DNA of 64,000 nucleotides from an uncultured Oscillospiraceae bacterium (GTDB lineage: Bacteria > Bacillota > Clostridia > Oscillospirales > Acutalibacteraceae): NCBI GenBank assembly GCA_958448165.1, contig CAUDCW010000004.1, forward strand, positions 63,130 to 127,129, in the 5' to 3' direction. Each line of letters begins with the position of its first letter. Position 1 is the stretch's first letter. Below, piece by piece: positions 6,704-64,000 of the stretch. The position numbers and the translations under genes were made by a program. Under the pieces are notes generated by a model, which saw only the letters and a program-made list of their open reading frames with translations, did no database searches and was not told the DNA's origin.

Positions 6704-7123
6704 TTATAATTTCTTTTCCATATGGATATGTTCGCAGTATTCGTCAAAGTATGTTTCGCCGCTTGCGGAAAAGCCGAGTTTTTCGTAGAATTCCTTTACT
6801 CTTAGCTGTGCCGACAGCGACAGTGTGTTTCCGCCGAGCGACCTGATATATCTTTCAGCCTCGTTCATCATCAGAGAACCAAGCTGTCTGCCGCGGTGCT
6901 CTTTCAGCACTGCAAGCCTGCCGATGATAAATTCGTCCGGCGACTCGCCCTTGAAAAAGCGGCAGCAGGCAATCGGCGTTTCTTCATCGTAAACCACCAG
7001 ATGCCATGCATGTGCATCAATATCGTCAAATTCATTTACAAACCCCTGCTCTTTTACAAAAACCTCCTGACGGATATCCTTTGCGCATTGCGGCAGGGCA
7101 GAGCATATTTCAACCTTTATCAA
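6704..7123 (-). CDS. GNAT family N-acetyltransferase
   Basis: 139 aa with acetyl-CoA-binding motif RGRQLGSLMMNEAERY typical of GNAT. Confidence 0.75.
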   Translation of the reverse strand: MIKVEICSALPQCAKDIRQEVFVKEQGFVNEFDDIDAHAWHLVVYDEETPIACCRFFKGESPDEFIIGRLAVLKEHRGRQLGSLMMNEAERYIRSLGGNTLSLSAQLRVKEFYEKLGFSASGETYFDEYCEHIHMEKKL

Positions 7124-7147
7124 GCGTATTCCCCCACAGAAATCTTG

Positions 7148-7942
7148 TTATTCATCAACGGTGAATCTGTAATTGTGCAGCAGCGGACCGCTGCCCTTTC
7201 CGATATTGAAATTGACCCTCAATGCTCCGTTGATATATTTTTTTGCGTTCTGAACGCTGTCGTATATATTGCAGCCGCCGGCAAGACCGCAGGCTATCGC
7301 CGATGACAAAGTGCAGCCTGTGCCGTGGGTGTTGCTGTTGTCAATTTTCGGCGAATAGAACCACTTTAATTTGTTTCCGTCAAAAAGCAGGTCGTTGGCG
7401 TCGCCGACACTGTGACCGCCCTTTATCAGAACGGCAGAGCCGCACAGTTCAAATATCTTTTTTGCCGCAAGCTCGGTGTCGTCTTTGGTTCGGATTTTTA
7501 TCCCGCTCAACACCTCAGCCTCAGGAATATTCGGTGTTACAACGGCTGCAAGCGGCAATAGGGAAGAGGTCAGCTCGTCAATGGCGTCCTGCTGTAAAAG
7601 CGGACTGCCGCTGGTTGAAATCATAACGGGGTCAACGACAATATTCTTGGCGTTGTGCTTTTTAAGGCACTGCGCAATTGTTTTGATTATATCGGCGTTT
7701 GACACCATGCCTATTTTCACGCTGTCAGGTACTATGTCGTCAAATACACAGTCAATCTGCTTTGCGACAAATTCGGGGTCTGTGTCGGCAACGCCGTAAA
7801 CTCCTGTGGTGTTCTGTGCCGTAAGCGAGGTTATGGCGCTCATAGCGTACATACCGAAGCAGGTTATAGTCTTGATGTCAGCCTGAATTCCTGCTCCGCC
7901 GCTTGAGTCTGAGCCTGCAATTGTAAGCACTGCTTTAATCAT
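7148..7942 (-). CDS. thiD: Hydroxymethylpyrimidine/phosphomethylpyrimidine kinase
   Basis: [25 protein letters not shown]... matches the ThiD/PdxK ribokinase-like fold. Sits in an operon with thiC. Confidence 0.85.
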   Translation of the reverse strand: MIKAVLTIAGSDSSGGAGIQADIKTITCFGMYAMSAITSLTAQNTTGVYGVADTDPEFVAKQIDCVFDDIVPDSVKIGMVSNADIIKTIAQCLKKHNAKNIVVDPVMISTSGSPLLQQDAIDELTSSLLPLAAVVTPNIPEAEVLSGIKIRTKDDTELAAKKIFELCGSAVLIKGGHSVGDANDLLFDGNKLKWFYSPKIDNSNTHGTGCTLSSAIACGLAGGCNIYDSVQNAKKYINGALRVNFNIGKGSGPLLHNYRFTVDE

Positions 7943-43257: not shown

Positions 43258-43800
43258 ATGAAAGCAACAGGAATTGTTAGGCGCATTGACGACCTCGGCA
43301 GAGTTGTAATACCCAAGGAAATCCGACGTACTCTCAGAATAAAAGAGGGTGCGCCGCTTGAAATTTACACCGACGGCAACGGAGAGGTCATCTTCAAAAA
43401 ATATCTGCCGATGGGTGAGCTTGTCAATCTTGCGGTTCTTTACACAGAGGTGTTATACAAGGTTTCGGGTATGCCGACGATAATAAGCGACAGCGAGCAT
43501 ATTGTTGCCGCATCCGGTGTGCCTAAGCGTGACTATCTTGAACGCAGGGTGTCGCCTGTGATTGATGAATTTATGGAGATGCGCCGCAGCTATGCGGCTC
43601 ACGATACCCAGATCAACGATATCCACCCGGTTGAGGGGCTTGACGGTGTAGCGGCGGTAATGTATCCGATAATTTCTTCGGGCGATGTTATGGGCAGCGT
43701 TATAATGCTGTTCGGCGACAGCAAAAATATGCCGACAGAAACAGAAATAAAGCTTGTGCAATCTGCCGCTGTTTTTCTCGGAAAGCAGATGGAGGAATAA
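43258..43800 (+). CDS. spoVT: Stage V sporulation protein T (AbrB-type N-domain + GAF-like C-domain)
   Basis: MKATGIVRRIDDLGRVVIPKEIRRTLRIKEGAPLEIYTD is a SpoVT/AbrB swapped-hairpin domain; length 180 aa as in SpoVT. Confidence 0.85.
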   Translation: MKATGIVRRIDDLGRVVIPKEIRRTLRIKEGAPLEIYTDGNGEVIFKKYLPMGELVNLAVLYTEVLYKVSGMPTIISDSEHIVAASGVPKRDYLERRVSPVIDEFMEMRRSYAAHDTQINDIHPVEGLDGVAAVMYPIISSGDVMGSVIMLFGDSKNMPTETEIKLVQSAAVFLGKQMEE

Positions 43801-43955
43801 TTGCAGTCATCGCGTTATGGCTTTGCCGGAACGGTAAGACCATAACGCGTTTATTATAATTTACAAAAATGTTATAACTTAGAGAGCCTTAAAACTTGAA
43901 TTCACAACTGCATTTATGTTATAATACTTACGATAATGTGAAAGAAGGTGTTTTA

Positions 43956-45716
43956 ATGCCTGAACTATGCTATGGATGTATGAAAGAAAGCAGCGGCGAA
44001 AAAATCTGCCCCAACTGCGGCTTTGATAAAAATACACAGCAGAAAGCGCCCTTTTTGCCATTGGGCAAAAGGCTTCAGGATAGGTACATTGTCGGAAAAA
44101 TACTCGTTAACAGCACTGATTCTGCTACATATATCGGATATGACGATAAGAACGGTACTGTTGTAAACATTCGCGAGTTCCTTCCGGCAGGTCTTTGCAC
44201 AAGGGATTCGAGCAATGATTCGCTTGTGCCGAACAACGGCAGTGATGCTATATATTCAGAATATCTTGAAGAATTCAAGAATATTTACACAAAGGTCAAA
44301 AAATACAGCGAGCTTACCGCTATCACAAATATCCTCGATATTTTTGAAGAGAATAACACGGTTTATGCCATTGAAGAGGTTGACGATGTTATTCCGTTTG
44401 AGGAGTATATTGAGCGCAGCGGCGATAATATGGAGTGGGACACGGCAAGACCGTTGTTTATGCCGCTTTTGTCTGCTCTTTCACAGCTCAACAGCGACGG
44501 CCTTTATCATCTCGGTGTTGCGCCGGACAACCTTGTGGTGACATCGGCAGGCAAGATAAGACTTGTTAATTTTGCAATTAACGAGGTCCGTCAGAAGGGC
44601 AACAAGGTTGCAGACGTGCTTTACTCCGGCTGCAGTGCGCCTGAGCAGTATGACGAGGACGGCGTTATTGATGAGCAGACCGAAATTTACGGCTTCACGG
44701 CAACTCTTTTTTACGCTCTTGCAGGTAAGCTCCCTGCTGACGCAGTAAAAAGAAAAGAGGACGGCAGACTTCTTATCAGCACCAATGTTGTAAAAAAGCT
44801 TCCTCCTCATGTTGTTTCCGCACTTGCAAATGGTTTGCAGGTTGACAAGGAGCAGAGAATTCCCGATTTTGAAACAATGCGGGCACAGCTCAGCGCAGCT
44901 CCGACAGTTAAGGCGATACAGGAAGAAATAGCAAGGCCTGCTGTTGTTCCTATGATAGAAGAGGATGTTGAAGAGAAAAAGGGAGTTTCAAACTTCACAT
45001 GGGGTGTTATAGCCGCAATAATTGCTCTTGTTGTGTTTTCTGCGGCAGGCTTCTGGTGGATTTCAACAAACCCGTTCGAGGGCTTGTTCCAACCGGGCGA
45101 AGCACCGACCGACCCCACTTCTGCCACCTCAATAACCGAGCCTGAGGGCGAGGACTTCACATATCCGCGCGACAGCGAGTTCTTCCGTGTGCCGAGCTTT
45201 ATCGGCTTAAAGCTTGAGGACGCTCAGAAAAAGGCGGAGGAAAGCGACGGCGAATACACTGTTATCAGAACAATCGACGATGCGTTCAGCGATACAGTTG
45301 CCGAGGGCTTTATATGTGAGCAGACGCCGGAGGGCAGAACAACAATCAATCGCGGCAAGGACGGCGTTACGATAGCCGTTACGATAAGTAAAGGCTCAAA
45401 GCAGAGAGTTCTCCCGAAAATTGACAATATGACATATGAGCAGGCTCTCAAAGCTCTTACAAATGAGCATCTCCTCACCGATGTCGTTATGGAGTTCAGC
45501 GACGATATTCCGGAAAACACGGTTATTTCCTATAAGGATAAAAAAGAGGGCGACAAGGTTGAATACGGCTCGTCTGTTACTGTTGTGGTAAGTCTGGGAC
45601 CTGAACCGACTTCTTCAGATTCTTCTGCATCGAGCAACACATCAAGCGAATTCACATACAGCGATGCAATTTCATTTGAGGATTCAAGCAGTTCAAGCAG
45701 TTCTGATTCCGAATAA
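43956..45716 (+). CDS. Membrane protein: N-terminal zinc ribbon + degenerate (pseudo)kinase domain + TM + two extracellular PASTA domains + Ser-rich tail
   Basis: GAAGGTG RBS then MPELCYGCMKESSGEKICPNCGFD. Kinase-like fold with HLGVAPDN in place of HRDxKxxN, NFA in place of DFG, NIRE in place of VAIK, no Gly loop, APE retained (CSAPEQ). TM VIAAIIALVVFSAAGFWWI; PASTA-like FRVPSFIGLKLEDAQKKA and LPKIDNMTYEQALKAL. Confidence 0.7.
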   Translation: MPELCYGCMKESSGEKICPNCGFDKNTQQKAPFLPLGKRLQDRYIVGKILVNSTDSATYIGYDDKNGTVVNIREFLPAGLCTRDSSNDSLVPNNGSDAIYSEYLEEFKNIYTKVKKYSELTAITNILDIFEENNTVYAIEEVDDVIPFEEYIERSGDNMEWDTARPLFMPLLSALSQLNSDGLYHLGVAPDNLVVTSAGKIRLVNFAINEVRQKGNKVADVLYSGCSAPEQYDEDGVIDEQTEIYGFTATLFYALAGKLPADAVKRKEDGRLLISTNVVKKLPPHVVSALANGLQVDKEQRIPDFETMRAQLSAAPTVKAIQEEIARPAVVPMIEEDVEEKKGVSNFTWGVIAAIIALVVFSAAGFWWISTNPFEGLFQPGEAPTDPTSATSITEPEGEDFTYPRDSEFFRVPSFIGLKLEDAQKKAEESDGEYTVIRTIDDAFSDTVAEGFICEQTPEGRTTINRGKDGVTIAVTISKGSKQRVLPKIDNMTYEQALKALTNEHLLTDVVMEFSDDIPENTVISYKDKKEGDKVEYGSSVTVVVSLGPEPTSSDSSASSNTSSEFTYSDAISFEDSSSSSSSDSE

Positions 45717-51816: not shown

Positions 51817-52253
51817 TAGCACTTGGATGCGATCACGGTGGATTTGCCATTAAGGAAGCAATAAAAAAGTATCTTGATGAAAGCGGAATTGAGTACAACG
51901 ATTTCGGTTGCTACAGCGAGGAATCTGTTGATTATCCGGTTTATGCAAAAAAGGTTGCCGACGCAGTAGCAAGCGGCGAATGTGAAAAGGGTGTTCTTTG
52001 CTGCGGTACGGGTATCGGAATTTCGATTGCCGCAAACAAGGTCAAGGGTATCAGAGCCGCCGTTGTCACAAACGAGTTCTGTGCAGAGATGACGCGCCGC
52101 CACAATGATGCTAACATAATTGCAATGGGAGGCAGAGTTATATCCGAGGAGCAGGCGGTTAAGTTCACAAGAATATTCCTCGAAACCCCGTTTGACGGCG
52201 ACCGCCATGTCAAGAGAGTTCAGATGATAACAGATATCGAAAACGAGAATTAA
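51813..52253 (+). CDS. rpiB: Ribose-5-phosphate isomerase B
   Basis: MIALGCDHGGFAIKE...GVLCCGTGIGISIAANK RpiB/LacAB signature. Confidence 0.9.
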   Translation: MIALGCDHGGFAIKEAIKKYLDESGIEYNDFGCYSEESVDYPVYAKKVADAVASGECEKGVLCCGTGIGISIAANKVKGIRAAVVTNEFCAEMTRRHNDANIIAMGGRVISEEQAVKFTRIFLETPFDGDRHVKRVQMITDIENEN

Positions 52254-52455
52254 AAATTTGAAATTGCGAAGGAAATTTGAAATTGCGCCGACTCATAGCC
52301 ATAGTGGGTCGGCGCTTGATTTCTCTTAATCAATTTATCTTTGTATTTTGAAATTTTGATTATCTTGATTTCTTGTTATGATTATCTTGATTTCTGGACT
52401 TGCTTTTTTCTCAAATTTGTTGTATAATAGCCGATGTTATATTCAATTGATATAT

Positions 52456-52540
52456 GCGGGCGTGGCGGAATTGGCAGACGCGCTAGATTTAGGTTCTAGT
52501 GTCAACCGATGTGCAGGTTCAAGTCCTGTCGCCCGCACCA
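52456..52540 (+). tRNA. tRNA-Leu(TAG), class II with long variable arm, CCA encoded
   Basis: GCGGGCG acceptor paired with CGCCCGC-ACCA; D-arm GGCGGAATTGGCAGACGC; anticodon loop TTTAGGT (anticodon TAG); long variable arm; T-arm GGTTCAAGTCC. Own promoter (TGTATAAT at ~52414-52422). Confidence 0.85.
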
Positions 52541-52544
52541 AATA

Positions 52545-52599
52545 AGAACGAAAGTTATGATACCATTGGTATTGCAACTTTCGTTCTTTTTCTTTTTTC
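52545..52599 (+). terminator. Rho-independent terminator after tRNA-Leu
   Basis: AAGAACGAAAGTT...AACTTTCGTTCTT hairpin followed by TTTTCTTTTTT. Confidence 0.75.
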
Positions 52600-53006
52600 A
52601 AAAATGCCTGTAACACAAGGCTTTTTGGCTGTGGGGCATAAAAGATAAGTTTCAGTGTGGGAAATTTTCTCCGCTCTATGATCCTTGCAAAACTGAAAAA
52701 AAGACGGAATTATGAACCCGAATACCAAAATGAAACTTTTCTCAAAATAGATTAGTTTCATTGTATAGAAAAGTTTCACTGTCAAAAAGAATACACAAAG
52801 ACAACAGAATAACCTTCCGATTCAAGAACGGAAGGGACATCGAGGTTGGGGTTGAATAAACCCCGCCTTTTTTGTTTGGGTGGAAAAATTCATATTTATG
52901 TGATATAATCTGTTCGATAAATAAGAATTTGTCTAACTGATAGCAACAGCGAGTTGCTTGTAAACTTGAACATCCTGCATTACAATTATAGTGAGGTGAT
53001 GATTCT

Positions 53007-53771
53007 ATGGAAACAAAGGATATTATAGTAGAGTTGAGAACTAAAAACGGGCTTTCACAAGAAGCTCTTGCAGAAAAAATATTCGTAACAAGACAGGCGG
53101 TTTCTCGTTGGGAAACCGGAGAAACGGTGCCAAATACTGAAACACTAAAATTGTTATCAAAACTGTTTGATGTATCTATCAATACGCTTCTCGGTTCTCC
53201 AAGACAGCTTATCTGCCAATGCTGCGGTATGCCTTTGGAAGATTCTAATATCAGCAAGGAAACCGATGGTTTCTTTAATGAAGAATATTGCAAATGGTGC
53301 TATGCAGACGGAGAATATATGTATCATAATATTGATGACCTGATTGATGTTTGTGTAAAGCATATGGCAAATGAGGAACATCCGGAGGAAGAAGTTCGTT
53401 CTTATTTACAGGAAACTCTACCGAAATTAGATTATTGGAAGAGATACAAAGAGCTTGGCGGTGATGGAGCTTTTGAAGAATTCAAAAAACTCTTGATTAC
53501 GGAAATCAATGAATTGAACATTGAAGGAATGCCAAAGCTTCAAAAGCTTAATGCCTTAGTTGGCGGATATGTCAATCTTGAATACAGACTTCCAAACGGA
53601 AAAAGTGTGAAGTTTTTAGATGACGGAGTAACCTATTTAGGGAATCAGTTGGAATGCGAATTCGGAGAAAACAGATGTTTTGGCATTGTCTGCAATATGG
53701 ATTTTATTCTTATTGCAACCTATGAAGAAAATGGCGAAAATCCAGAGTTGGTTATTTATAAAAAGAGATAG
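53007..53771 (+). CDS. XRE-family HTH regulator fused to a Cys-rich (zinc-ribbon-like) domain and C-terminal domain of unknown function
   Basis: LRTKNGLSQEALAEKIFVTRQAVSRWETGE HTH_3 motif; CQCCGMPLED...CKWCYADGEY. Confidence 0.7.
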   Translation: METKDIIVELRTKNGLSQEALAEKIFVTRQAVSRWETGETVPNTETLKLLSKLFDVSINTLLGSPRQLICQCCGMPLEDSNISKETDGFFNEEYCKWCYADGEYMYHNIDDLIDVCVKHMANEEHPEEEVRSYLQETLPKLDYWKRYKELGGDGAFEEFKKLLITEINELNIEGMPKLQKLNALVGGYVNLEYRLPNGKSVKFLDDGVTYLGNQLECEFGENRCFGIVCNMDFILIATYEENGENPELVIYKKR

Positions 53772-54053
53772 TCAAATTCCAATTTTTCGGTCGGTTGCAT
53801 ACACTTCTTGGGTTGCATTTCAATGCAACTTTGCAACCGCTTGCAACCCGTACCAAAATATGCGTTATAATTCAAATCGAGGGTAGTTTTTACTGCCCTC
53901 GTTTTTTTTGCGTTTGCCCGGAATGGGCAGTAACTTGGTGGTGGGAGTCCACTACAGGCTTGGCAGTAGGAACTGTTAGCTGAGGGCAAGTGCGTCCATC
54001 GTGAGGTGGAGTATGAAATAAGCCTAAAGCAAACTCTCGGTCTGACGAACAGA

Positions 54054-54375
54054 AATCACATATAAGGCATATGCAGAGCGGACGAGCTTGGCTCATTTGG
54101 GTGATATTGTATTGTTCCGTTATGTTGTTCGACAATACTTTTTACAATAGCTAATCCTAAGCCGGCACCGCCGACTTTTTTAGTCATTTGCTTGTTTTCA
54201 CGGTAGAAAGGTTAAAAAATATGCGCAGAGCGTCAGGGGAGATGCCAATTCCTGTATCGGATACGATAATCAAAAGTTGGTTGTTTGCCTTTTTAGTTTT
54301 GATATGTACTTTGCCATTTTCTGTATTATATTTAATTGCATTTTGAATAAGGTTTGATACAGCGTGTTTAAGCAT
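54054..54375 (-). pseudogene. Histidine kinase C-terminal remnant (HATPase domain only, frameshifted)
   Basis: 54375-54184 encodes N/G1 boxes (NLIQNAIKYN...IIVSDTGIGISPDALRIFF) and ends in TGA; an overlapping ATG in another frame continues as MTKKVGGAGLGLAIVKSIVEQHNGTI (G2 box). No HisKA or sensor domain upstream (stop immediately 5'). Confidence 0.6.
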
Positions 54376-54489
54376 TTCATCTTCTATTTATCTGTTTTCA
54401 AATTAAAACGCTTAAATATATTGCAATTTAATCATATGTATGTTATGCTTTTATTCAGAACGAACGATTTGAATGAATGGGGTGATTAG

Positions 54490-55095
54490 GTGGCGAATTA
54501 TACAGAAGAACAATGGAATGTCAAAAAAAATAAGCTTATGGAAACGTGCTTTAACGGTTTTGCCGATTTAGGACTTCACGGCACCGGTATTCGGGTGTTG
54601 GCAAAGCATTGCGGATATAACACATCTATGATCTATACATACTTTGAAAGCCTGGATGACCTTATCATACAATCTACGGAGTACTGTATGAGTAAGGTAG
54701 AAGATGATTTTATGGCGAAAGCTCCCACAGATGTTAAGGACTTATGGCGGTTTATAGACGAGATACCCTACTGGACTGCAAAAAAACACGGAAAGAAATA
54801 CCGCCTTATGTATCAGGTCTATACACACCCGAAATACAGAGAATACGGTCAGAAATTCTTTGCGGGTGTTGATAAGCGTTACACCGAATACGCAAAAAGC
54901 TTAGAGGGTAAGCTGGGAATTCCTTATCAAAAGCTGACGCCGCTGATATTCATTCTAATCAGAGCCTGCGTGCATTACGCATTATTTGAGGACGAATTTT
55001 ACCTGAAATCACAGATTACTGTGCTGAAAGAATCTATTGAACTCTTTGTTATGAAATATAACCCGAAAGCAAGGTCGGGTGCTAATACAGAATAA
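54490..55095 (+). CDS. TetR/AcrR-family transcriptional regulator
   Basis: GTGIRVLAKHCGYNTSMIYTYFES TetR_N HTH; ~200 aa all-helical. Confidence 0.75.
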   Translation: MANYTEEQWNVKKNKLMETCFNGFADLGLHGTGIRVLAKHCGYNTSMIYTYFESLDDLIIQSTEYCMSKVEDDFMAKAPTDVKDLWRFIDEIPYWTAKKHGKKYRLMYQVYTHPKYREYGQKFFAGVDKRYTEYAKSLEGKLGIPYQKLTPLIFILIRACVHYALFEDEFYLKSQITVLKESIELFVMKYNPKARSGANTE

Positions 55096-55270
55096 GTTAA
55101 ATTCAAAAATAAGAACATAACAAATCTGCCAACAGCCTGCTTTTGCGGATAAAAACGTAACTCATTAAGTGCCCCGTCTGTTATAATTCTCCGGTGCTGA
55201 ACGCCGGAAAGATCTTTTCCACCTTCGGTTATTTTATAACTAAAAAATATTTGACCTTGGAGGTATCATT

Positions 55271-55579
55271 ATGCAGATCACAACTAATATCAGTAATCAG
55301 AATCTTATAATTTCAATAAGCGGCAGACTTGATACTATTTCCTCACCGCAGTTAGAGGAGGAGATTAACCGCAATTCTTTTGATGAAATTGAAACGGTTA
55401 CTCTTAATATGAGAGCGCTTGAGTATATATCAAGTACAGGACTCAGGGTTATTTTAATGCTTTATAAGAAACTGACAAGTGTCGGAGTTAAGCTCAGGCT
55501 TGTTAATGTAAATGATATGGTTATGGAAATATTCACTATGACAGGAATGGATAGTTTTCTTGAGATAGATTATGCATAA
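55271..55579 (+). CDS. STAS-domain anti-sigma-factor antagonist (SpoIIAA/RsbV-like)
   Basis: 102 aa; LEYISSTGLRVILMLYKK, with the conserved phosphorylatable Ser/Thr in the ISSTGL context. Confidence 0.8.
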   Translation: MQITTNISNQNLIISISGRLDTISSPQLEEEINRNSFDEIETVTLNMRALEYISSTGLRVILMLYKKLTSVGVKLRLVNVNDMVMEIFTMTGMDSFLEIDYA

Positions 55580-57362
55580 TATTTTTAATGAGAGTGATGT
55601 TATGAGTGAAACAGCGTTAAAACGTAATTCTGTCACAATAAACAGGAAGTATTCGGAATATTTTTTGCCTACTGTTCTTACGGCTATGGCTACAAATATT
55701 GCAATGATTGTCGATTCAATAATAGCCGGCAATATTCTCGGCAAGAATGCTTTGGCTGCAATAAACCTATTATCTCCTGTTGCTCAGCTTTATTTTTCGC
55801 TGACAATTTTGTTCGGACTCGGAGCTTCAAGTGTTATAGCCGTTGCAAAAGGAAAGAATGACAGAACGCTTGTAAACCGCATTTTTACGACAACATTTAT
55901 TGCAGTTGTGTTATTATGTATCGTGCTGATGGCAATACAGCTTCCGCTTGCAGGCGGAATATGCTCTTTGTTTACTAAGGATAAGGTTTTGAATCCGCTT
56001 CTATATCAGTATTACATACCGTATATAATCGGAACACCTCTTAATCTGATGCTGCTGTGTTCAACTTATTTTATCAGAACTGATAACAGACCGAGATTTG
56101 CTTCAAATATAATAATTGTGGCAAACATAATAAATCTGATTATGGATTATGTGTATATGGGCGTTTTCGATATGGGTATTGCAGGCTCGTCAATAGCCAC
56201 TGTTACCGGCTACGCTGTAGGATTTATTATGATGATTACACATTTCACTTCAAAAAAGAGCACGCTGCATTTTGACTTTTCAATTCTGAAAGCCCCAAAG
56301 AAATTTTTTGAAATATTCTCTGATCTGATTACGGTCGGCTTATCCGGTGCGCTGGGAACGCTTCTTATAACGGTCAAAATGCTGTTCCTTAACTGGATTA
56401 TCATGAGTACAGGCGGAAGGGACGCAATGGCTTCGTATTCAATATGCTCATCAAGTCAGATTTTTATGTCTATGTTCATAACAGGTGCGTCGCAGACAAT
56501 GATACCGATTGTCGGTGTTTGTTTGGGCGAAAAGGATTTTGATGGAATACGGTATGCATTCAGACGGGCATTTACAATTCTTGCCGTAGTAAGCGTTGTA
56601 ACTATGCTGTTTATTTTGGCTGCGCCCGAACCTGTAATAAGACTGTTTGGAATAACTGCTGAAAACGATATTTCAAATGCAGTTCCCACACTCAGGATAA
56701 ACGCTCTGTCGTTTCCTGCGCTTGCTTTTTCTTTTCTGTTTCTGTATTACTATATGGCAACTCAGAGAAAGACAATATCAACAACCATTGCAGTTCTTAA
56801 CGGAATTGTAATACTCATTCCATCGGCACTTATTTTGTCAAAGCTTTTCGGAATAACAGGTGTGTGGATTTCACTTGTGGCGGCTCAGGTCGGCACGTTG
56901 ATTGTATTATCTTTTATAATTCTCGTTATTAAAAGAAAATCAAAAGGTAAGTATGATAGCTTTTATCTTATTGAATCCAATGATAATAATGAGATTGTTT
57001 CATTGTCTTTCAAAGGCTCAAAGGAAAACGCCTCCGGTGTTTCTTTATATTTAACATCGTTTCTTACATGTCACGGTATTGAAAAAAACATTGCTAACAG
57101 GATAGCTGTAGCTGTTGAAGGAATTTCGGCAGATATCGCAGAGCGTACCGGTGAGAAGAAAAAAGCGGATATTGATATTCGTATTATGATTGACGGCGGT
57201 GACACAATAATTTCTATTCGTGATAACGGAGAGGCGTATGATATTGTTTCAAATGACAGTGTAGATAAAACACTTTCGGAAATTGAGGTAGTAAAAGCTA
57301 TTTCAAAAAGAGTTGAATATTCAAATGTACTGGGCTTTAACAGATTGGTAATTAGAATTTAA
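55572..57362 (+). CDS. MATE-family efflux transporter (12 TM) fused to a C-terminal anti-sigma-factor-kinase-like HATPase (GHKL) domain
   Basis: N-terminal ~455 aa hydrophobic with a MATE-like duplication. C-terminal ~140 aa NIANRIAVAVEGISADIAERTG...DIDIRIMIDGGDTIISIRDNGEAYD...NVLGFNRLVIRI resembles SpoIIAB/RsbW-type HATPase_c_2. Start overlaps the STAS gene stop. Confidence 0.7.
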   Translation: MHNIFNESDVMSETALKRNSVTINRKYSEYFLPTVLTAMATNIAMIVDSIIAGNILGKNALAAINLLSPVAQLYFSLTILFGLGASSVIAVAKGKNDRTLVNRIFTTTFIAVVLLCIVLMAIQLPLAGGICSLFTKDKVLNPLLYQYYIPYIIGTPLNLMLLCSTYFIRTDNRPRFASNIIIVANIINLIMDYVYMGVFDMGIAGSSIATVTGYAVGFIMMITHFTSKKSTLHFDFSILKAPKKFFEIFSDLITVGLSGALGTLLITVKMLFLNWIIMSTGGRDAMASYSICSSSQIFMSMFITGASQTMIPIVGVCLGEKDFDGIRYAFRRAFTILAVVSVVTMLFILAAPEPVIRLFGITAENDISNAVPTLRINALSFPALAFSFLFLYYYMATQRKTISTTIAVLNGIVILIPSALILSKLFGITGVWISLVAAQVGTLIVLSFIILVIKRKSKGKYDSFYLIESNDNNEIVSLSFKGSKENASGVSLYLTSFLTCHGIEKNIANRIAVAVEGISADIAERTGEKKKADIDIRIMIDGGDTIISIRDNGEAYDIVSNDSVDKTLSEIEVVKAISKRVEYSNVLGFNRLVIRI

Positions 57363-57585: not shown

Positions 57586-60500
57586 ATGAATATACCCAAA
57601 AAGGCTTCTCTTTCAAAGACAGAATACGGAATTTATTTTGATTATCTGAACAATCCGAGCAGTATTGCTTACAATATTCCGTTGTTTTTAAAGCTTGACA
57701 AGGATATCGACATTACAAGACTTAAGCAGGCGGTTGAAGCGGTTATTGAAAATCATCCGTACATTAAATCACGCTTAACTGCCGATATCGACGGAGCTGT
57801 TTACAAGCTTTCGTCCGATGAACCGGCAGTTGTGGAAGTTAAAGAGCTGCACGACGCCGATTTTGACAAAAAAAGCCTTGTTTATCCTTTCGAGTTACTA
57901 AGCGAAAGACTTTATCGGTGCTGTATTATTAGTCTTGATTCATATGTGATGCTTTTCTGCGATTTTCACCATATTATCTTTGACGGCTCGTCAGCCAAAA
58001 TCTTTTTGAATGATGTTTCAAGAGCCTACAATGGTTTGCCGCTTGAACCGGAGCATTTTACAGGAAACGACGTTTCGTATGAAGAAGAGGAAAGATTAAA
58101 GACAGACGAGTTTAATTCTGCTAAGGAATATTATCGTTCGCATTTCAGCGGCATTGAGCTTGATTCTGTTATGATGAATGACAAAAACGACGGAAAACCA
58201 CTTGCAAAAGCAATTGAATACGAGTTTACATCCTTTAATGCTGACGATATAAGAAAATTCTGCCGCAAAAACGGCATAAAAACAAGCACATTCTTCTGCG
58301 GCGTTTACGGCTTTTTGCTTGCAAAATTTTCGGGAGCTGAAGAAAGCCTTTTTGCGACTATTCATAACGGACGAAACGAAAAGCTCGCAAATTCCTGCGG
58401 AATGTTTGTTAAGACATTGCCTGTTTACTGTAATTTCAGTAAGAATGAAAGTATTGTGCAATTTCTGAAGAGTCTTGATTTACAGCTTCAAAACAACAGA
58501 AAAAATGACTTGTATTCATATGCAGATATATGTTCTGATTTACAGATAAATCCACCGACCATTTTTGCCTATCAGGGTGATATATTCAGAAACATTAACT
58601 TCTGCGGAAAGGAAATATTTGCTGACAGCATAGATGTTCCCGATGCAAAGGCAAATATTTCGGCAGAGCTTTCAAGAATTAACGGAAGATTTTCAATGAG
58701 ATTTGAATACAGAGCCGATTTGTATGAGGAAAAGTCGGCAGAAAGCTTCCTGAAATCATTTGAAAAAGCGGTAACTGAATTTATCGGGAAAGAAAAAATA
58801 AATGACATTGACATAACCGACAGCGAACAGCTTGCACTTCTTGACAGCTTTAACAATACTGAAAGAGATTACGAAAAGACCGATATTGTAACGCTGTTCA
58901 GACGTCAGGCAGAACAGAACCCTGACAACACAGCAGTTGTATATCTTGACAAAAGCTATACATACAAAGAGGTTGACGAGATTTCGGAAAAAATAGGTGC
59001 ATATATTTCCTCTCTCGGAATCGGAAGAGAAGACGTTGTTTCCGTACTTATTCCGAGGTGTGAATATATGGTGCTTGCGTCATTGGGTGTTTTGAAATCG
59101 GGTGCGGCATATCAGCCGCTTGACCCGTCATATCCGCAGGAGCGCCTTGAATTTATGATGCAGGATGCATCGGCAAAGCTTCTGATAGCCGACAAAGACT
59201 TGCTTGAGCGTGTGCCGAATTACAAGGGTAAGGTGCTTATTCTTGAGGATATTCCTGCACTTCCGAGCTGTGAAAAAATCAGCACAAATCCCAATTCCGA
59301 GGATTTGTTTATTATGCTCTACACCTCAGGCTCAACAGGCACACCAAAGGGCTGTATGCTTGAACATAGAAATATAGTTTCCTTTTGCAACTGGTACAGA
59401 AATTATTACAATCTTACTTCTCAGTCAAGGGTAGCGGCTTATGCAAGCTACGGCTTTGACGCAAATATGATGGATATGTACCCTGCGCTGACAACAGGGG
59501 CAACAATACATATCATTGACGAGTCAATCCGTCTTGACCTGCTGGCGATTGACAAATACTTTAATGAAAATAAAATAACCCACAGCTTTATGACAACGCA
59601 GGTCGGCAGACAGTTTGCTGTTGAAATTGACAACAGCACCATAACCGAATTGTCTGTTGGCGGCGAAAAGCTTGTGCCGCTTGCTCCTCCGAAAAATCAT
59701 AAGATGATAAATCTTTACGGTCCTACCGAAAGCACCGTTTGTATAACAGCATTTGAGCTTGACAGGCTTTATGACAGAGTGCCGATAGGAAAGGCACTTG
59801 ACAATACAAAGCTTTATGTTGTGGATAAGCAAGGCAGGAGATTGCCGCCTTGTGTTCCCGGTGAATTGTGGGTTGCAGGTCACGGAGTGTCAAGAGGTTA
59901 CTTAAACCGCCCCGAACAGAATGAAAAAGCCTTTATCAGAAATCCGTTTACCGATGAAAAAGGCTATGAAAGAGTTTACAGAACAGGCGATATAGTGAGA
60001 TATTTGCCAGACGGCAATATCGACTTTGTCGGCAGAAACGACGGTCAGGTTAAAATCAGAGGCTTCAGAATCGAGCTTCCCGAGGTTGAGCGCATTATCC
60101 GTGAATTTGAGGGAATAAAAGACGCAACTGTTGCGGCATTTGATGAAGCAGGCGGAGGAAAATTTATTGCGGCTTACGTTGTATCTGACAGCAAGGTAGA
60201 TATTCAGAAGCTCAATGAATTTATACTTGCTAACAAACCTCCGTATATGGTTCCTGCAGTAACAATGCAGATTGACAGAATTCCTCTTAATCAGAATCAG
60301 AAGGTCAACAAGCGTGCATTGCCCAAGCCTGAAAAGAAAGCGCACAACGGCGAACCGTCATCAAAGCCTATGACCCTGCTTGAAAAGAAAATTCACTCAA
60401 TCGTTGCTGAAATTCTCGGTAACGATAATTTCAGTGTTACTGAAAATCTTTTGTTTGCAGGACTCAATTCCTTGTCGGTAATTAAGCTTGCGGTTGAACT

Positions 60501-63500
60501 CCATAAGGAATTCGGCTTTGAGGCTAATGTGAAGCAGATGATGAAGGAATGCTCTGTTATTTCTATTGAAGACCGGCTTCAGGAATACCTTATTAGCGGA
60601 GCATTGGCAAAGAGTACAGCCGAGCAAAAGCAAAAAGGCTACAAGTCTTTATATCCGCTGTCAAAGACGCAGTTGGGCGTATATTTTGACTGTATGAAAA
60701 ATCCGTACACTACGCTATATAACATTCCGTCATTTCTTAAATTCACAAAGTCTATAAACGCAGAAAAGCTTGCTGACAGTGTTAAAAAGGTTATTCTTGC
60801 GCATCCGTACATATTCACTCATCTTACAACGCAAAACGATGATGTAGAGCAGGCTTTTCCTGATAACACACAGATTGATATTCCTGTAAAGAAAATGACT
60901 GAAAATGAGCTTGAACTCTTTAAAAAAGACTTTGTCAAGCCGTTTAACTTCTCTAAAGCTCCGCTTTTCAGAATCCTTGTTGTTGAAACAGAGAGAAATA
61001 TCTATCTGTTTGCTGATTTTCATCATATTATTTTTGACGGTGCGTCTTACAACATATTTTTGAATCAGCTCAAAGCAGCATATGAGGGTGCTGAAATCAG
61101 GCCGGAGAATTATACATATTTTGACTATATTGAAGACGAAATCAAAGCTGAAAGCAGCGAAGAATACCTCAAAGCAGAAAAATTCTTTGATGATATGATG
61201 AAGAATTTTGAGTCGGCGTCCGAAATAACTCCTGATTCAGGCTCACAGGGAGATAACGGCAGGCTTGCAGAAGTAAATGTTCCCTTTGATTTAGCGCAGA
61301 TAGAAGCTTTCTGTAATAAAAACGGTGTTACACCTGCACAGCTTTTCCTTGCAGCCGCTTTCTATTCAGTGTCACGCTTTACAAATTCAAGAAACGTATT
61401 TCTCAGCACAATCAGCAACGGCAGAAGCGATATGCGTCTGACGGATTGTTTTGGTATGTTTGTTAAAACATTACCTCTCGGAATTGAGATTGAAGATATT
61501 TCGGCACTTGAATTTGTTAAAAAGAGCAAGTCTGTTTTTACGGGCGCAATAGAAAATGAAATTTATCCTTATTCAAAGATTTGTTCAAAATTCGGATTTG
61601 CACCGAATATAATGTACGAATATCAGATTGGTGTAACGGACGATTTGAAAATTGACGGCGAAGCTGTTGAAAGAAATTTCTTTGATATGAAAATCACAAA
61701 GTTTAAAACTGCAATTTATATTGAAAATTATAAAAATCAGCCCTGCATTGTTGTCCGTTACAATGAAGCGCTTTACAGTAAAGAGCTTATGCAAACGCTT
61801 GTAAAATCAATTTTCAATGCGGCTATGCACGTTATTTCTGCGCCGGATTGTAAGATAAGAAAAATTTCTCTGCTTGATGACAGTCAGCTTGATGAGCTGA
61901 ACAGCTTTTCTTTTACACGTATTGCTCCTGTTGAAACAAAGCTTTTGCATAAAATGTTTGAGAACCAGGTTGAAAAAACTCCCGACAACAATGCAATTAC
62001 TGCCTGTGACGGAACTCTTACATACAGAGAGCTTAACCGCCGTGCAAATGTTACTGCAAACGAGCTTATTGCAAGAGGCTTGAAAAAGGGTGGAAGGGTT
62101 GTGGTGCTGCTTAGCAGAACAACAAAAATTTTCTCAACCATTTTCGGTATCCTCAAAGCAGGCGGAGCATTTATTCCTACCTGCCCCGACTATCCGCAGG
62201 AAAGAATCAACAGTATTATCGAGGACAGTGAGGCTGATTTCGTAGTAACCGAGGGCGAGCTTGTCAGGATTTATGATAAAACGATAGATGTAGATTTACT
62301 TCTCGGCGGTGAAAACAGCGAAACACCCGATGTTGATGTAAGTCCCGAGGATCTGGCTTATCTAATTTACACATCAGGCTCAACAGGAAAGCCTAAGGGC
62401 GTTATGCTAAAGCATATTGGAATTGCAAACTATTTAAGCTATAATGACGCAAACCCTCAGGTAAAGTATGTTGTTGATAATTGCAAGGCTTACGGCTCTG
62501 TAACGACAGTATCATTTGATATGTCACTTAAGGAAACAGTACTTTCATTATGCAGCGGTCTGACGCTTGTCTTTGCAAGCGATGAGCAGACGGTTAACCC
62601 GATTGCTCTTGCAAAATTTCTTAAAGAAAATAACGCTGATGCGTTCAACGCAACTCCTTCAAGGCTTTTGCAGTATATGGAGCTTGATGAATTTGCAGAA
62701 GCGATGGCTGACTGTAAGGTTATTCTTTCGGGCGGTGAGAAATATCCCTATAAGCTCCTGAAGCTTCTCCGTGAAAAAACCAATGCAAAAATTCTTAATA
62801 CTTACGGTCCTACCGAAATAACGGTTTCGTCAAACTGTAAAGACCTGACAAACGCTGATGAAATTTCAGTCGGAAAGCCGCTTTTGAACTATGTTGAACA
62901 TATAGTTGACGTTGACAACAACCTTCTTCCTGTAGGAGTTGTCGGCGAGCTTCTGATTTCAGGGTGCGCAGTTGCACTTGGCTACAATAAACTTCCCGAG
63001 CAGACGAAAAAGGCGTTTGTTGAGTTTAACGGCGAAAGAACCTACCGTTCGGGCGACTATGCCAAGTGGACGAAGAACGGTGATGTTGTAATACTCGGCA
63101 GAACCGACAATCAGGTTAAGCTCAGAGGTCTGAGAATTGAGCTGGGCGAAATCGAAAAGTGCCTGACAGACATCAACGGCATTAAGAGTGCAGTTGCTTT
63201 GATAAGAAAGGTAAATAACGCTGACGCTTTATGTGCCTACTACACATCGAATATTCAGCTTGATTCGGAATTTATCAAAAATGAGCTTAAAAAATCTTTA
63301 ACTGATTATATGGTGCCTGCGGCATATGTTCAGCTTTCTGAAATGCCGCTGACCCCTAACGGCAAAATCAACACGAAGCTTTTGCCTGAGCCTCAGTCGT
63401 CCGAAAAGAAAACAGGAGTTAAACCGACAACTGCTCTTGAAAAAACTATGTGCGATATATTTGCCAAGGTTCTGGAGCTTGATAAGGTTTATGCCGATGA

Positions 63501-64000
63501 TAATTTCTTTGATATAGGCGGAAGCTCGCTGACCGTTACAAGGGTGATTATTCTTGCCAATAAAAGCGGTATAGAGATTGCGTACGGCGACGTATTTGAA
63601 AACCCGACTCCTGCCGCACTTGCAAGGCTGTGCGGAAAAGATGTGCCGAAGAACGACTTTGAAGATCTGGGTAACTATGATTACAGTAATATAGAAAATG
63701 TGTTGCTTAAAAATAATCTTGAGAGCTTCAAAAACGGAGATATGCAGGAGATAGGCGATGTACTCCTTACGGGTGCCGCAGGCTTCCTTGGAATTCATAT
63801 TCTTTATGAGCTGCTCCACAGATACAGCGGCAAGGTTTACTGCCTGCTGCGTGACAAGAATAACAATCCCGCAGAGGACAGACTTAATATGATTTTCTTC
63901 TATTATTTTGAAGAAAGTCTGAAAGAAAGCTATTCCGATAGATTGACTGTCTTGAGCGGAGATGTCACAGACAGAGAATCATTTGACAAGTTCCTTGAGT
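57586..64000 (+). CDS. Non-ribosomal peptide synthetase, two modules: C-A-T-C-A-T-R (terminal thioester reductase); 3' end beyond window
   Basis: AGGGGTGA RBS then MNIPKKASLSKTEYGIYFDY. The open frame continues to the window end. Motifs: HHIIFDGSS (C1), LYTSGSTGTPKG/YRTGD/GRNDGQVKIRGFRIEL (A1), FAGLNSLSVI (T1), HHIIFDGAS (C2), LIYTSGSTGKPKG/YRSGD/GRTDNQVKLRGLRIEL (A2), FFDIGGSSLTV (T2), VLLTGAAGFLGIHIL (R). Confidence 0.85.
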   Translation, partial: MNIPKKASLSKTEYGIYFDYLNNPSSIAYNIPLFLKLDKDIDITRLKQAVEAVIENHPYIKSRLTADIDGAVYKLSSDEPAVVEVKELHDADFDKKSLVYPFELLSERLYRCCIISLDSYVMLFCDFHHIIFDGSSAKIFLNDVSRAYNGLPLEPEHFTGNDVSYEEEERLKTDEFNSAKEYYRSHFSGIELDSVMMNDKNDGKPLAKAIEYEFTSFNADDIRKFCRKNGIKTSTFFCGVYGFLLAKFSGAEESLFATIHNGRNEKLANSCGMFVKTLPVYCNFSKNESIVQFLKSLDLQLQNNRKNDLYSYADICSDLQINPPTIFAYQGDIFRNINFCGKEIFADSIDVPDAKANISAELSRINGRFSMRFEYRADLYEEKSAESFLKSFEKAVTEFIGKEKINDIDITDSEQLALLDSFNNTERDYEKTDIVTLFRRQAEQNPDNTAVVYLDKSYTYKEVDEISEKIGAYISSLGIGREDVVSVLIPRCEYMVLASLGVLKSGAAYQPLDPSYPQERLEFMMQDASAKLLIADKDLLERVPNYKGKVLILEDIPALPSCEKISTNPNSEDLFIMLYTSGSTGTPKGCMLEHRNIVSFCNWYRNYYNLTSQSRVAAYASYGFDANMMDMYPALTTGATIHIIDESIRLDLLAIDKYFNENKITHSFMTTQVGRQFAVEIDNSTITELSVGGEKLVPLAPPKNHKMINLYGPTESTVCITAFELDRLYDRVPIGKALDNTKLYVVDKQGRRLPPCVPGELWVAGHGVSRGYLNRPEQNEKAFIRNPFTDEKGYERVYRTGDIVRYLPDGNIDFVGRNDGQVKIRGFRIELPEVERIIREFEGIKDATVAAFDEAGGGKFIAAYVVSDSKVDIQKLNEFILANKPPYMVPAVTMQIDRIPLNQNQKVNKRALPKPEKKAHNGEPSSKPMTLLEKKIHSIVAEILGNDNFSVTENLLFAGLNSLSVIKLAVELHKEFGFEANVKQMMKECSVISIEDRLQEYLISGALAKSTAEQKQKGYKSLYPLSKTQLGVYFDCMKNPYTTLYNIPSFLKFTKSINAEKLADSVKKVILAHPYIFTHLTTQNDDVEQAFPDNTQIDIPVKKMTENELELFKKDFVKPFNFSKAPLFRILVVETERNIYLFADFHHIIFDGASYNIFLNQLKAAYEGAEIRPENYTYFDYIEDEIKAESSEEYLKAEKFFDDMMKNFESASEITPDSGSQGDNGRLAEVNVPFDLAQIEAFCNKNGVTPAQLFLAAAFYSVSRFTNSRNVFLSTISNGRSDMRLTDCFGMFVKTLPLGIEIEDISALEFVKKSKSVFTGAIENEIYPYSKICSKFGFAPNIMYEYQIGVTDDLKIDGEAVERNFFDMKITKFKTAIYIENYKNQPCIVVRYNEALYSKELMQTLVKSIFNAAMHVISAPDCKIRKISLLDDSQLDELNSFSFTRIAPVETKLLHKMFENQVEKTPDNNAITACDGTLTYRELNRRANVTANELIARGLKKGGRVVVLLSRTTKIFSTIFGILKAGGAFIPTCPDYPQERINSIIEDSEADFVVTEGELVRIYDKTIDVDLLLGGENSETPDVDVSPEDLAYLIYTSGSTGKPKGVMLKHIGIANYLSYNDANPQVKYVVDNCKAYGSVTTVSFDMSLKETVLSLCSGLTLVFASDEQTVNPIALAKFLKENNADAFNATPSRLLQYMELDEFAEAMADCKVILSGGEKYPYKLLKLLREKTNAKILNTYGPTEITVSSNCKDLTNADEISVGKPLLNYVEHIVDVDNNLLPVGVVGELLISGCAVALGYNKLPEQTKKAFVEFNGERTYRSGDYAKWTKNGDVVILGRTDNQVKLRGLRIELGEIEKCLTDINGIKSAVALIRKVNNADALCAYYTSNIQLDSEFIKNELKKSLTDYMVPAAYVQLSEMPLTPNGKINTKLLPEPQSSEKKTGVKPTTALEKTMCDIFAKVLELDKVYADDNFFDIGGSSLTVTRVIILANKSGIEIAYGDVFENPTPAALARLCGKDVPKNDFEDLGNYDYSNIENVLLKNNLESFKNGDMQEIGDVLLTGAAGFLGIHILYELLHRYSGKVYCLLRDKNNNPAEDRLNMIFFYYFEESLKESYSDRLTVLSGDVTDRESFDKFLE

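Follow-up and report, generated by a model that had tools for sequence, protein, structure and literature searches.

Organization of the locus

The subject of this work is a pair of adjacent genes in a stretch of 64,000 nucleotides, here called the window (positions 63,130 to 127,129 of contig CAUDCW010000004.1), from an uncultured Oscillospiraceae bacterium of the Acutalibacteraceae. The first gene encodes a free STAS protein, and the second a MATE exporter that ends in a degenerate domain of the GHKL fold, the fold of the partner-switching proteins RsbW and SpoIIAB. Both genes precede that of a nonribosomal peptide synthetase (NRPS). The features of the locus are the following:

55271–55579, + strand: STAS gene (RsbV/SpoIIAA-like anti-sigma-factor antagonist), 102 amino acids, single domain
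55572 (or 55602)–57362, + strand: fusion open reading frame (ORF), 596 (or 586) amino acids
55572–56930, + strand: MATE exporter domain, DinF/PfMATE type, 12 transmembrane (TM) helices, assigned by MatE, NF007130 and an AlphaFold 2 (AF2) model compared with Foldseek
56931–57362, + strand: degenerate RsbW/SpoIIAB-like GHKL tail, residues 454–596, assigned by Foldseek, the family profile and Pfam
57586–64000, + strand: NRPS with two modules and a terminal reductase (C-A-T-C-A-T-R according to its translation), cut off by the end of the window

A preliminary description of the locus, made from the sequence, had called the 102-residue product of the first gene SpoIIAA/RsbV-like, and profile searches agree: the protein matches Pfam STAS with an E-value of 1.2e-21 (76.9 bits, gathering score 22.6) and TIGR00377, 'anti-sigma factor antagonist', with 83 bits (cut-off 53.45). 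The gene is preceded by a strong GGAGG ribosome-binding site. The putative phosphorylation site is Ser55, the second serine of the motif YISSTGL, which gives S-x-G-L at the start of helix 3 and aligns with S58 of SpoIIAA and S56 of RsbV. Ser55 is invariant in the 29 intact copies (29/29) of the clade of relatives described below, and also in the STAS partners of distant fusions.

The same description had the two genes translationally coupled by overlap. The tight spacing holds, the gap between them being conserved in all relatives at −8 to about +30 nt. The 8-nt overlap of the STAS stop with the fusion ORF, in turn, depends on the start codon, and arises only if the first ATG (55572) is used. 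From the ATG at 55602, the likelier start, the fusion would begin 22 nt past the STAS stop and comprise 586 amino acids. Because most public gene calls use 55602 and similarity to distant relatives also begins there, the overlap is uncertain.

The exporter domain

The assignment of a 12-TM MATE transporter to the N-terminal part of the fusion is borne out by sequence and structure. The protein matches Pfam MatE (PF01554; 9e-37) in two repeats, and the MATE model NF007130 (6e-47) aligns nearly end to end, residues 22–452 falling on model positions 3–430 of 435. The AF2 model of the full-length fusion has a predicted local distance difference test score (pLDDT) of 93 and a predicted template-modelling score (pTM) of 0.92. 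The best structures for the pump in the PDB are PfMATE (6hfb/3vvo), VcmN, DinF-BH and ClbM, with target TM-scores in Foldseek of 0.78–0.91, those to PfMATE, VcmN and DinF-BH being 0.84–0.91. MATE exporters occupy ranks 1–40 of the Foldseek result (E 1e-15 to 1e-8) and MurJ and WzxE appear from rank 41; among 71 full-length relatives only 4 match the MurJ model and 3 match Polysacc_synt. The pump is therefore placed on the drug/metabolite-exporter side and not with the MurJ/Wzx flippases.

The last TM helix (TM12) ends at about residue 456 and is followed by KRKSKGK and then by the soluble tail of 143 amino acids. Since it follows TM12 of a MATE fold, with the positive KRKSKGK at the membrane exit, the tail is cytoplasmic. 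The pTM of 0.92 and the confidently modelled linker suggest a fixed arrangement of tail and pump in the predicted structure.

The tail has the fold of RsbW and SpoIIAB

By itself, the window tail matches HATPase_c_2 (PF13581) only at E=0.003, with 17.9 bits and thus under the gathering score of 27.4. A direct search of NCBIfam with the tail alone gave no clear assignment either, and no PDB sequence matched it; a word-indexed homologue search returned 8 near-identical fragments only. Despite this weak direct match the GHKL homology is secure, because relatives, family profile and structure comparison agree. HMMER, run over 1.84 billion cluster representatives, found 162 relatives of the tail at E<=0.001. 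Most of them are 570–606 amino acids long and match at residues ~440–590, that is, they have the same fusion architecture, which is present in at least 160 protein clusters (50% identity). All full-length family members carry MatE (71/71) and 57/71 carry HATPase_c_2 (E<=0.01; best 1.3e-14). A profile of the tail family, searched against PDB sequences, retrieves Bacillus subtilis RsbW (6m36; E=5.6e-4) first, followed by Rv1364c and SpoIIAB, in alignments that extend over both N-box and G1 box. Structure prediction leads to the same kind of protein: for the AlphaFold model of the tail (pLDDT 84.7), the top 17 Foldseek matches in the PDB are all SpoIIAB, Mycobacterium tuberculosis UsfX or RsbW, with E-values of 4e-7 to 2e-4 and query TM-scores of 0.54–0.70. 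The C-terminal GHKL domain of RsbW/SpoIIAB type that had been read from the sequence is thus found by both profile and structure searches.

All 71 of 71 tails have the Asn of the C-terminal LGFN motif (N590, 57339–57341). The free kinases encoded at these loci also have an Asn at the aligned position and B. subtilis RsbW does not, which suggests that these kinases belong with the tails to a single HATPase_c_2 subfamily.

Catalytic motifs of the tail

That the tail is the kinase of the system, as the same description took it to be, is not supported by its motifs. In the N-box, whose family consensus is EExxxN, the first Glu is kept in 69/71 members, the second in 66/71 and the Asn in 47/71. The window tail reads VEGISAD (E-G-x-x-x-D), so that the first Glu is kept, the second is replaced by Gly and the Mg-binding Asn by Asp. 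At the Asn site the window's clade has D in most loci, N in Ruminococcus bromii ATCC 27255, S in Ruminococcoides intestinale, a close relative of the latter from the same subclade, and Q in two metagenome-assembled genomes (MAGs); a site that drifts among D, N, S and Q is therefore unlike an essential catalytic residue. The G1 box is retained in the window as RDNG, and in the family its Asp is found in 63/71 and its Gly in 65/71 members, with a change of the Asp to Glu in two clade loci. The G2 box is missing from the window tail, which has LSEIEVV at that position. The loss is general: of the tails in two sets, 0/56 and 1/17 contain the pattern GG[ILVM]G, as against 36/38 free RsbW-like ORFs, a comparison set of 120–175 amino acids drawn from the same set of loci. 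In direct alignment the ATP lid of the tails is, in addition, ~10 residues shorter than that of the free kinases.

The window tail thus departs from the kinase family in three sequence features, namely its score under the gathering value, its N-box Asn and its G2 box, and for this reason we term it RsbW-like in fold and descent and not a kinase. Judged by these motifs and by the free kinase encoded in relatives, the tail most likely phosphorylates nothing, especially in the window.

A correlation between the N-box Asn and the presence of an adjacent STAS gene (4/4 with Asn against 0/4 without) was considered and discarded: the window's clade keeps its STAS gene with D, S or Q at the site, and many Asn-bearing fusions have no neighbouring STAS gene.

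Conservation of the fusion and of its neighbours

Relatives of the locus, numbered with the prefix L, were collected in a clade scan that used one genome per species. At 65–96% identity there are 35 loci from Ruminococcus, Ruminococcoides and Acutalibacteraceae (the R. bromii group), among them those of the cultured R. bromii ATCC 27255 and R. intestinale. The frame of the fusion is continuous in all of them except one MAG (L019). A frameshift or assembly artefact that joins two genes was considered and is rejected by the intact frame in ~35 species, the cultured R. bromii ATCC 27255 among them; the fusion is genuine. Wherever a clade locus has sufficient flanking sequence, the STAS gene directly precedes the fusion and the NRPS gene directly follows it. 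The ratio of nonsynonymous to synonymous substitution (dN/dS) in reliable pairs is ~0.07–0.11 for the TM (MATE) domain and 0.12–0.36 for the STAS protein and the tail, of which the STAS protein has 0.12–0.33 and the tail 0.14–0.36 in most pairs. These values indicate that all three parts are maintained by purifying selection, and for the tail and the STAS protein this holds also in the subclade without a kinase gene.

Two lesions were seen within the clade, an interrupted fusion ORF in L019 (7140–7745) and a truncated STAS gene in L001 (3487–3738), which could be decay or assembly errors of single MAGs. The R. bromii-type locus was also found, at 65–67% identity, on contigs labelled Coriobacteriaceae, Eggerthellaceae, Bacteroidaceae and Bacteroides faecis (L021, L022, L023, L027); most likely these are mis-binned contigs and not cases of horizontal transfer.

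Association of the fusion with NRPS and STAS genes recurs where the tails are just 27–40% identical, in varied order:

L040: fusion > STAS > NRPS
L041: phosphopantetheinyl transferase (PPTase) > fusion > STAS
L048: NRPS > fusion > STAS, with a SpoIIE gene adjoining and no free kinase in view
L037, L039: fusion adjoining NRPS, without STAS

A STAS gene adjoins the distant fusions of L040, L041, L048, L077, L100, L116, L121, L156, L162 and the P0057 contig. A scan of metagenomes with a degenerate DNA pattern for the G1 box, from which many unrelated RsbW-like genes were filtered out, gave 23 further fusion ORFs, with a STAS gene within 4 kb (<=4 kb) in 6 loci and an NRPS gene in 7. In L077 (3471–8114) and L100 (6725–12025) tandem MATE-GHKL fusion genes flank one STAS gene, and in each pair one tail has the N-box Asn and the other Val or Leu. 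In two close relatives of the window the NRPS gene is followed, just 3' of it, by a second STAS paralogue (L008, 9613–9915; L033, 12069–12356), 38–43% identical to the first STAS protein and 60% identical to the STAS protein of the distant L041. This second paralogue is absent in L035 and in the R. bromii subclade.

Kinase, phosphatase and sigma genes in relatives

Separate partner-switching genes accompany the STAS gene in many relatives. In R. bromii ATCC 27255 (L032), whose locus is syntenic with the window in the order kinase-STAS-fusion-NRPS, a 135-residue canonical HATPase_c_2 protein (2e-19) with complete N-box and G2 box is encoded directly 5' of the STAS gene, at 7108–7515 of that locus. 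A canonical kinase gene has the same position in L013, L019–L021, L025, L026 and L030. In L028 (369–2843) and L029 (5183–7555) the place directly 5' of STAS is held by the gene of a tripartite protein, composed of a membrane domain (QueT-like by a weak match), the phosphatase domain SpoIIE and a HATPase_c_2 domain of canonical type, so that phosphatase and kinase are found on one membrane protein; no sigma gene is in view at these two loci. The fullest sets are the following:

L018: SpoIIE/PP2C > RsbW-like kinase (4-nt overlap) > extracytoplasmic function (ECF)-type sigma factor (22 nt later) > PPTase (other strand) > STAS > fusion > NRPS
L100 (a distant metagenome locus): sigma-like gene (more distant), free kinase, dCache-HAMP-SpoIIE protein, two fusions flanking one STAS, NRPS

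The set of L018 is a complete partner-switching set with a single STAS gene visible at the locus. Because separate kinase, phosphatase and sigma genes stand beside STAS in these relatives, their STAS protein belongs to a conventional partner-switching circuit, and the pump tail is an extra, degenerate GHKL paralogue inside it. In the window itself no free kinase, PP2C/SpoIIE or sigma homologue was found within the 64 kb, and the window has only the STAS protein and the degenerate GHKL tail, not a complete partner-switching set. The earlier statement that no sigma factor gene lies nearby is consequently correct for the window and does not extend to all relatives, given the operon-linked ECF-type sigma gene of L018. 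A further candidate, an ECF sigma gene located 5' of the TetR gene in L003 (4728–6408), was set aside as a linked part since a Sigma_reg_C anti-sigma partner of its own accompanies it and the two were judged an independent pair.

The NRPS and its product

The NRPS gene starts 223 nt after the fusion gene, at 57586. Its place directly behind the pair had been noted in the preliminary description; the link of the pair to an NRPS is real and is found again where the tails are just 27–40% identical. No terminator-like site was found on the + strand of the 223-nt spacer by consensus scan, and no RNA elements were found in the spacers. The window NRPS belongs with the dipeptide-aldehyde enzymes of gut clostridia, the rup/ruminopeptin family of R. 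bromii: its R-domain region is 68% identical to that of the R. bromii ATCC 27255 NRPS, and the locus is syntenic. The rup cluster of R. bromii gives rise to the dipeptide aldehyde ruminopeptin, and related clusters to pyrazinones (PMC12327764); these products are inhibitors of host and microbe proteases, notoriously hard to detect in culture (PMC12327764). Between the window subclade and the R. bromii subclade (L016, L018–L032) the reductase end of the enzyme is 64–74% identical, and the first 500 residues (57586–59085) are only ~35% identical. Module 1, and with it the product, therefore probably differ between the subclades. Most plausibly, judging solely by the position of its gene, the MATE pump exports the dipeptide-aldehyde product of the cluster.

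Surroundings of the cluster in the window

The following features lie to the left of the pair:

52456–52540, + strand: tRNA-Leu, marking the left boundary of the AT-rich island in which the cluster lies
53995–54219, + strand: group II intron D1-D4 fragment (Rfam RF02001, 52 bits)
54184–54375, − strand: histidine-kinase HATPase_c pseudogene fragment (63-residue ORF, Pfam HATPase_c 5.8e-13)
54490–55095, + strand: TetR-family regulator (TetR_N 1.4e-5), present only in close relatives
55190–55208, + strand: terminator-like hairpin between the TetR and STAS genes (consensus scan only)

In the window's subclade the TetR gene holds the place that the canonical kinase gene has in R. bromii-type loci. 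The GC content falls from ~0.47–0.48 to 0.37–0.39 where the AT-rich island begins (stretch 52000–54400), and the intron and histidine-kinase fragments are also present in L049 and L050. Island, tRNA-Leu and debris fit a remodelling of the left end of the cluster. About 10 kb (~10 kb) upstream, at 43258–45716 and in a core-genome part, lie genes for a SpoVT-like regulator and a PASTA-domain Ser/Thr kinase, which are probably unrelated to the cluster.

Proposed model and alternatives

Taking into account the fold of the tail, the decay of its catalytic motifs and the company of its gene, we propose that the tail may be a domain without catalytic activity on which STAS docks and through which the exporter is coupled to partner switching, a reading that we are about equally prepared to see upheld or overturned. 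In this model the tail would be an RsbW-type paralogue that has kept the fold, has lost catalysis and docks the co-encoded STAS protein. In the relatives, the free kinase and the SpoIIE phosphatase with its membrane or Cache sensor, whose genes are seen there, would set the phosphorylation of STAS, and the phosphorylation state would decide which seat STAS takes, the pump tail or the kinase/anti-sigma protein. One STAS protein would thus be shared between a kinase/anti-sigma branch acting on transcription and a pump branch acting on export. Occupancy of the tail would modulate export of the NRPS product, and the export of a reactive protease inhibitor would be tied to the same signal as its transcription. 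In the lineage of the window, which has no local kinase, phosphatase or sigma gene, STAS probably serves as a subunit, constitutive or regulated in trans, which the pump requires or which modulates it; any phosphorylation of STAS there is probably done by another protein, encoded outside the window. The gating of export by STAS, suggested at the outset, is a reasonable hypothesis, and the pair in the window is best explained as the core, or a two-part remnant, of a circuit of partner switching associated with an NRPS cluster.

Other arrangements of the same parts have to be weighed. If the tail were an active Ser kinase for the adjacent STAS protein, phosphorylation-dependent association of the two would gate the pump; the RsbW/SpoIIAB-type fold with the G1 box and the first N-box Glu kept, the invariant phospho-Ser of STAS, the Asn of 47/71 family members and the situation in L048, where fusion, STAS and a SpoIIE phosphatase occur with no free kinase in view, are in keeping with this. 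It is nevertheless quite improbable, considering that the G2 box is essentially gone family-wide, that the lid is shortened, that the window has lost the second N-box Glu and the Asn, at a site which varies among near-identical relatives, and that a canonical kinase gene stands beside STAS in many of them. Alternatively, the pump could act as a sensor or anchor, its tail sequestering STAS or a sigma factor at the membrane according to the transport state, so that flux feeds back on transcription of the cluster by way of the RsbW-like/sigma branch. The window subclade, which has no sigma, kinase or phosphatase gene yet keeps STAS and tail under purifying selection, makes this rather unlikely, as do the restriction of direct sigma operon linkage to L018 and the separate Sigma_reg_C partner of the L003 sigma factor, which is probably unrelated. 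What recommends the idea is that the closest folds, SpoIIAB, UsfX and RsbW, bind sigma factors, that in L018 the PP2C > RsbW-like > sigma series lies beside STAS and fusion with one STAS visible, and that in L100 two fusions and one STAS have as neighbours a sigma-like gene, a free kinase and a PP2C with a Cache sensor. A more specific form of feedback, a 'transport-coupled partner switch' in which the tail would bind or release a single STAS protein according to the engagement of the exporter with the aldehyde and so couple flux to transcription of the cluster, is given a small chance. SpoIIAB and RsbW are dimers, and a purely structural tail, serving for instance in dimerization or stabilization, with STAS acting off the pump as anti-anti-sigma factor of a nearby or lost RsbW/sigma pair, would agree with that, with the decayed catalytic motifs and with the several fusions that have no neighbouring STAS gene. 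We consider it very doubtful, as STAS directly adjoins the fusion, before it or after it, both in the clade and in distant relatives, some of these loci having no free kinase, and is under purifying selection in the window subclade, which encodes no further GHKL partner in the vicinity.

Several observations weigh against the proposed docking role. No STAS gene is present in the visible flanks of P0014, P0015, P0017, P0024 and several metagenome fusions; adjacency is therefore not universal, and the tail may have a role independent of STAS. The loss of the G2 box speaks against catalysis and falls short of disproof, the Asp at the N-box Asn site might still bind Mg2+, and the tails that retain the Asn could still be kinases, as in L048 with no free kinase visible. 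Finally, the window ends before the position of the second STAS gene, and further components may lie beyond it.

A complex of a STAS protein with an acyl carrier protein is known from Escherichia coli YchM. By analogy, and as a further stretch of the transport-coupled reading, STAS might also bridge NRPS carrier domains to the pump.

Relation to known systems

The pair shares with RsbW-RsbV and SpoIIAB-SpoIIAA of Bacillus, which work with RsbU and SpoIIE, the STAS phospho-Ser and a partner of GHKL fold. Relatives of the locus even carry a SpoIIE-type phosphatase and a canonical kinase, and L018 also a sigma factor. It is unlike them in that the GHKL domain is fused to a 12-TM MATE protein and has lost its G2 box and, in the window, the N-box Glu and Asn, and in that the window has no gene for a sigma factor, free kinase or phosphatase. 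In function the pair stands nearest to systems whose output is not a sigma factor. STAS phosphorylation with a non-sigma output is known from SypE-SypA of Vibrio fischeri and BtrW-BtrV of Bordetella (PMC10120452, PMC8256260), and for HenR-All4160 of Anabaena the proposed STAS target is a biosynthetic enzyme (bioRxiv 10.64898/2026.04.08.717354). In these three systems the GHKL protein is a soluble kinase and the output a separate protein, whereas here the GHKL-like domain is located inside the presumed output, the transporter, and is probably non-catalytic.

Cooperation of STAS domains with transporters has precedents. MlaB is a STAS protein that works with MlaF of a membrane transporter. In the SLC26/SulP family the C-terminal STAS domain is needed for stability or function of the transporter (PMC8256260). 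A STAS domain or protein cooperating with a transporter is common to SLC26/SulP, MlaB-MlaF and the window pair; with respect to SLC26/SulP the window pair is a mirror image, since here the transporter carries the GHKL domain, STAS is free and the transporter family is MATE. ClbM, from the colibactin NRPS-polyketide synthase cluster, is likewise a DinF-type MATE protein in an NRPS cluster of a gut bacterium, and its structure (4z3n) is among the structural matches of the pump. Its chain of 431 residues corresponds to the exporter domain only, with nothing matching the GHKL tail, and to our knowledge ClbM has no STAS partner. Further counterparts are the rup-type clusters of R. bromii, with an NRPS of the same C-A-T-C-A-T-R type and, in L032, synteny. 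The window differs from them by a TetR gene instead of the free kinase gene and by an NRPS module 1 that is ~35% identical.

The MATE, STAS and HATPase_c_2 families and the NRPS type are all known; the degenerate GHKL domain built into an exporter is apparently undescribed. The preliminary description had not recognized the fusion as a described system, and the searchable literature is in line with this, since no description of a MATE protein combined with HATPase_c_2, STAS, partner-switching or RsbW was found in it, although cluster papers may list such genes among accessory genes. A 2021 review of STAS-only proteins makes no mention of MATE or efflux. Public annotation calls the fusion 'MATE family efflux transporter', and one automatic IMG label, 'multidrug efflux pump/anti-sigma regulatory factor', names both halves.

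Implications

Partner switching is a classic bacterial signalling device whose non-sigma outputs are only now accumulating. The architecture described here, with a GHKL domain inside an exporter, is widespread; NRPS and STAS genes are repeatedly its neighbours, and in some cases sensor phosphatases are too. The tail would be a natural case in which a kinase fold has been reused for docking. An exporter wired to a STAS switch would offer handles on production and export of the product, such as a non-phosphorylatable STAS protein, deletion of the kinase or stimulation of the phosphatase. A dedicated kinase belongs to the switch in R. bromii, and other relatives have phosphatases with Cache or membrane sensors as well. 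Should coupling to transport prove true, it would be a previously undescribed means by which a biosynthetic cluster could sense what it produces.

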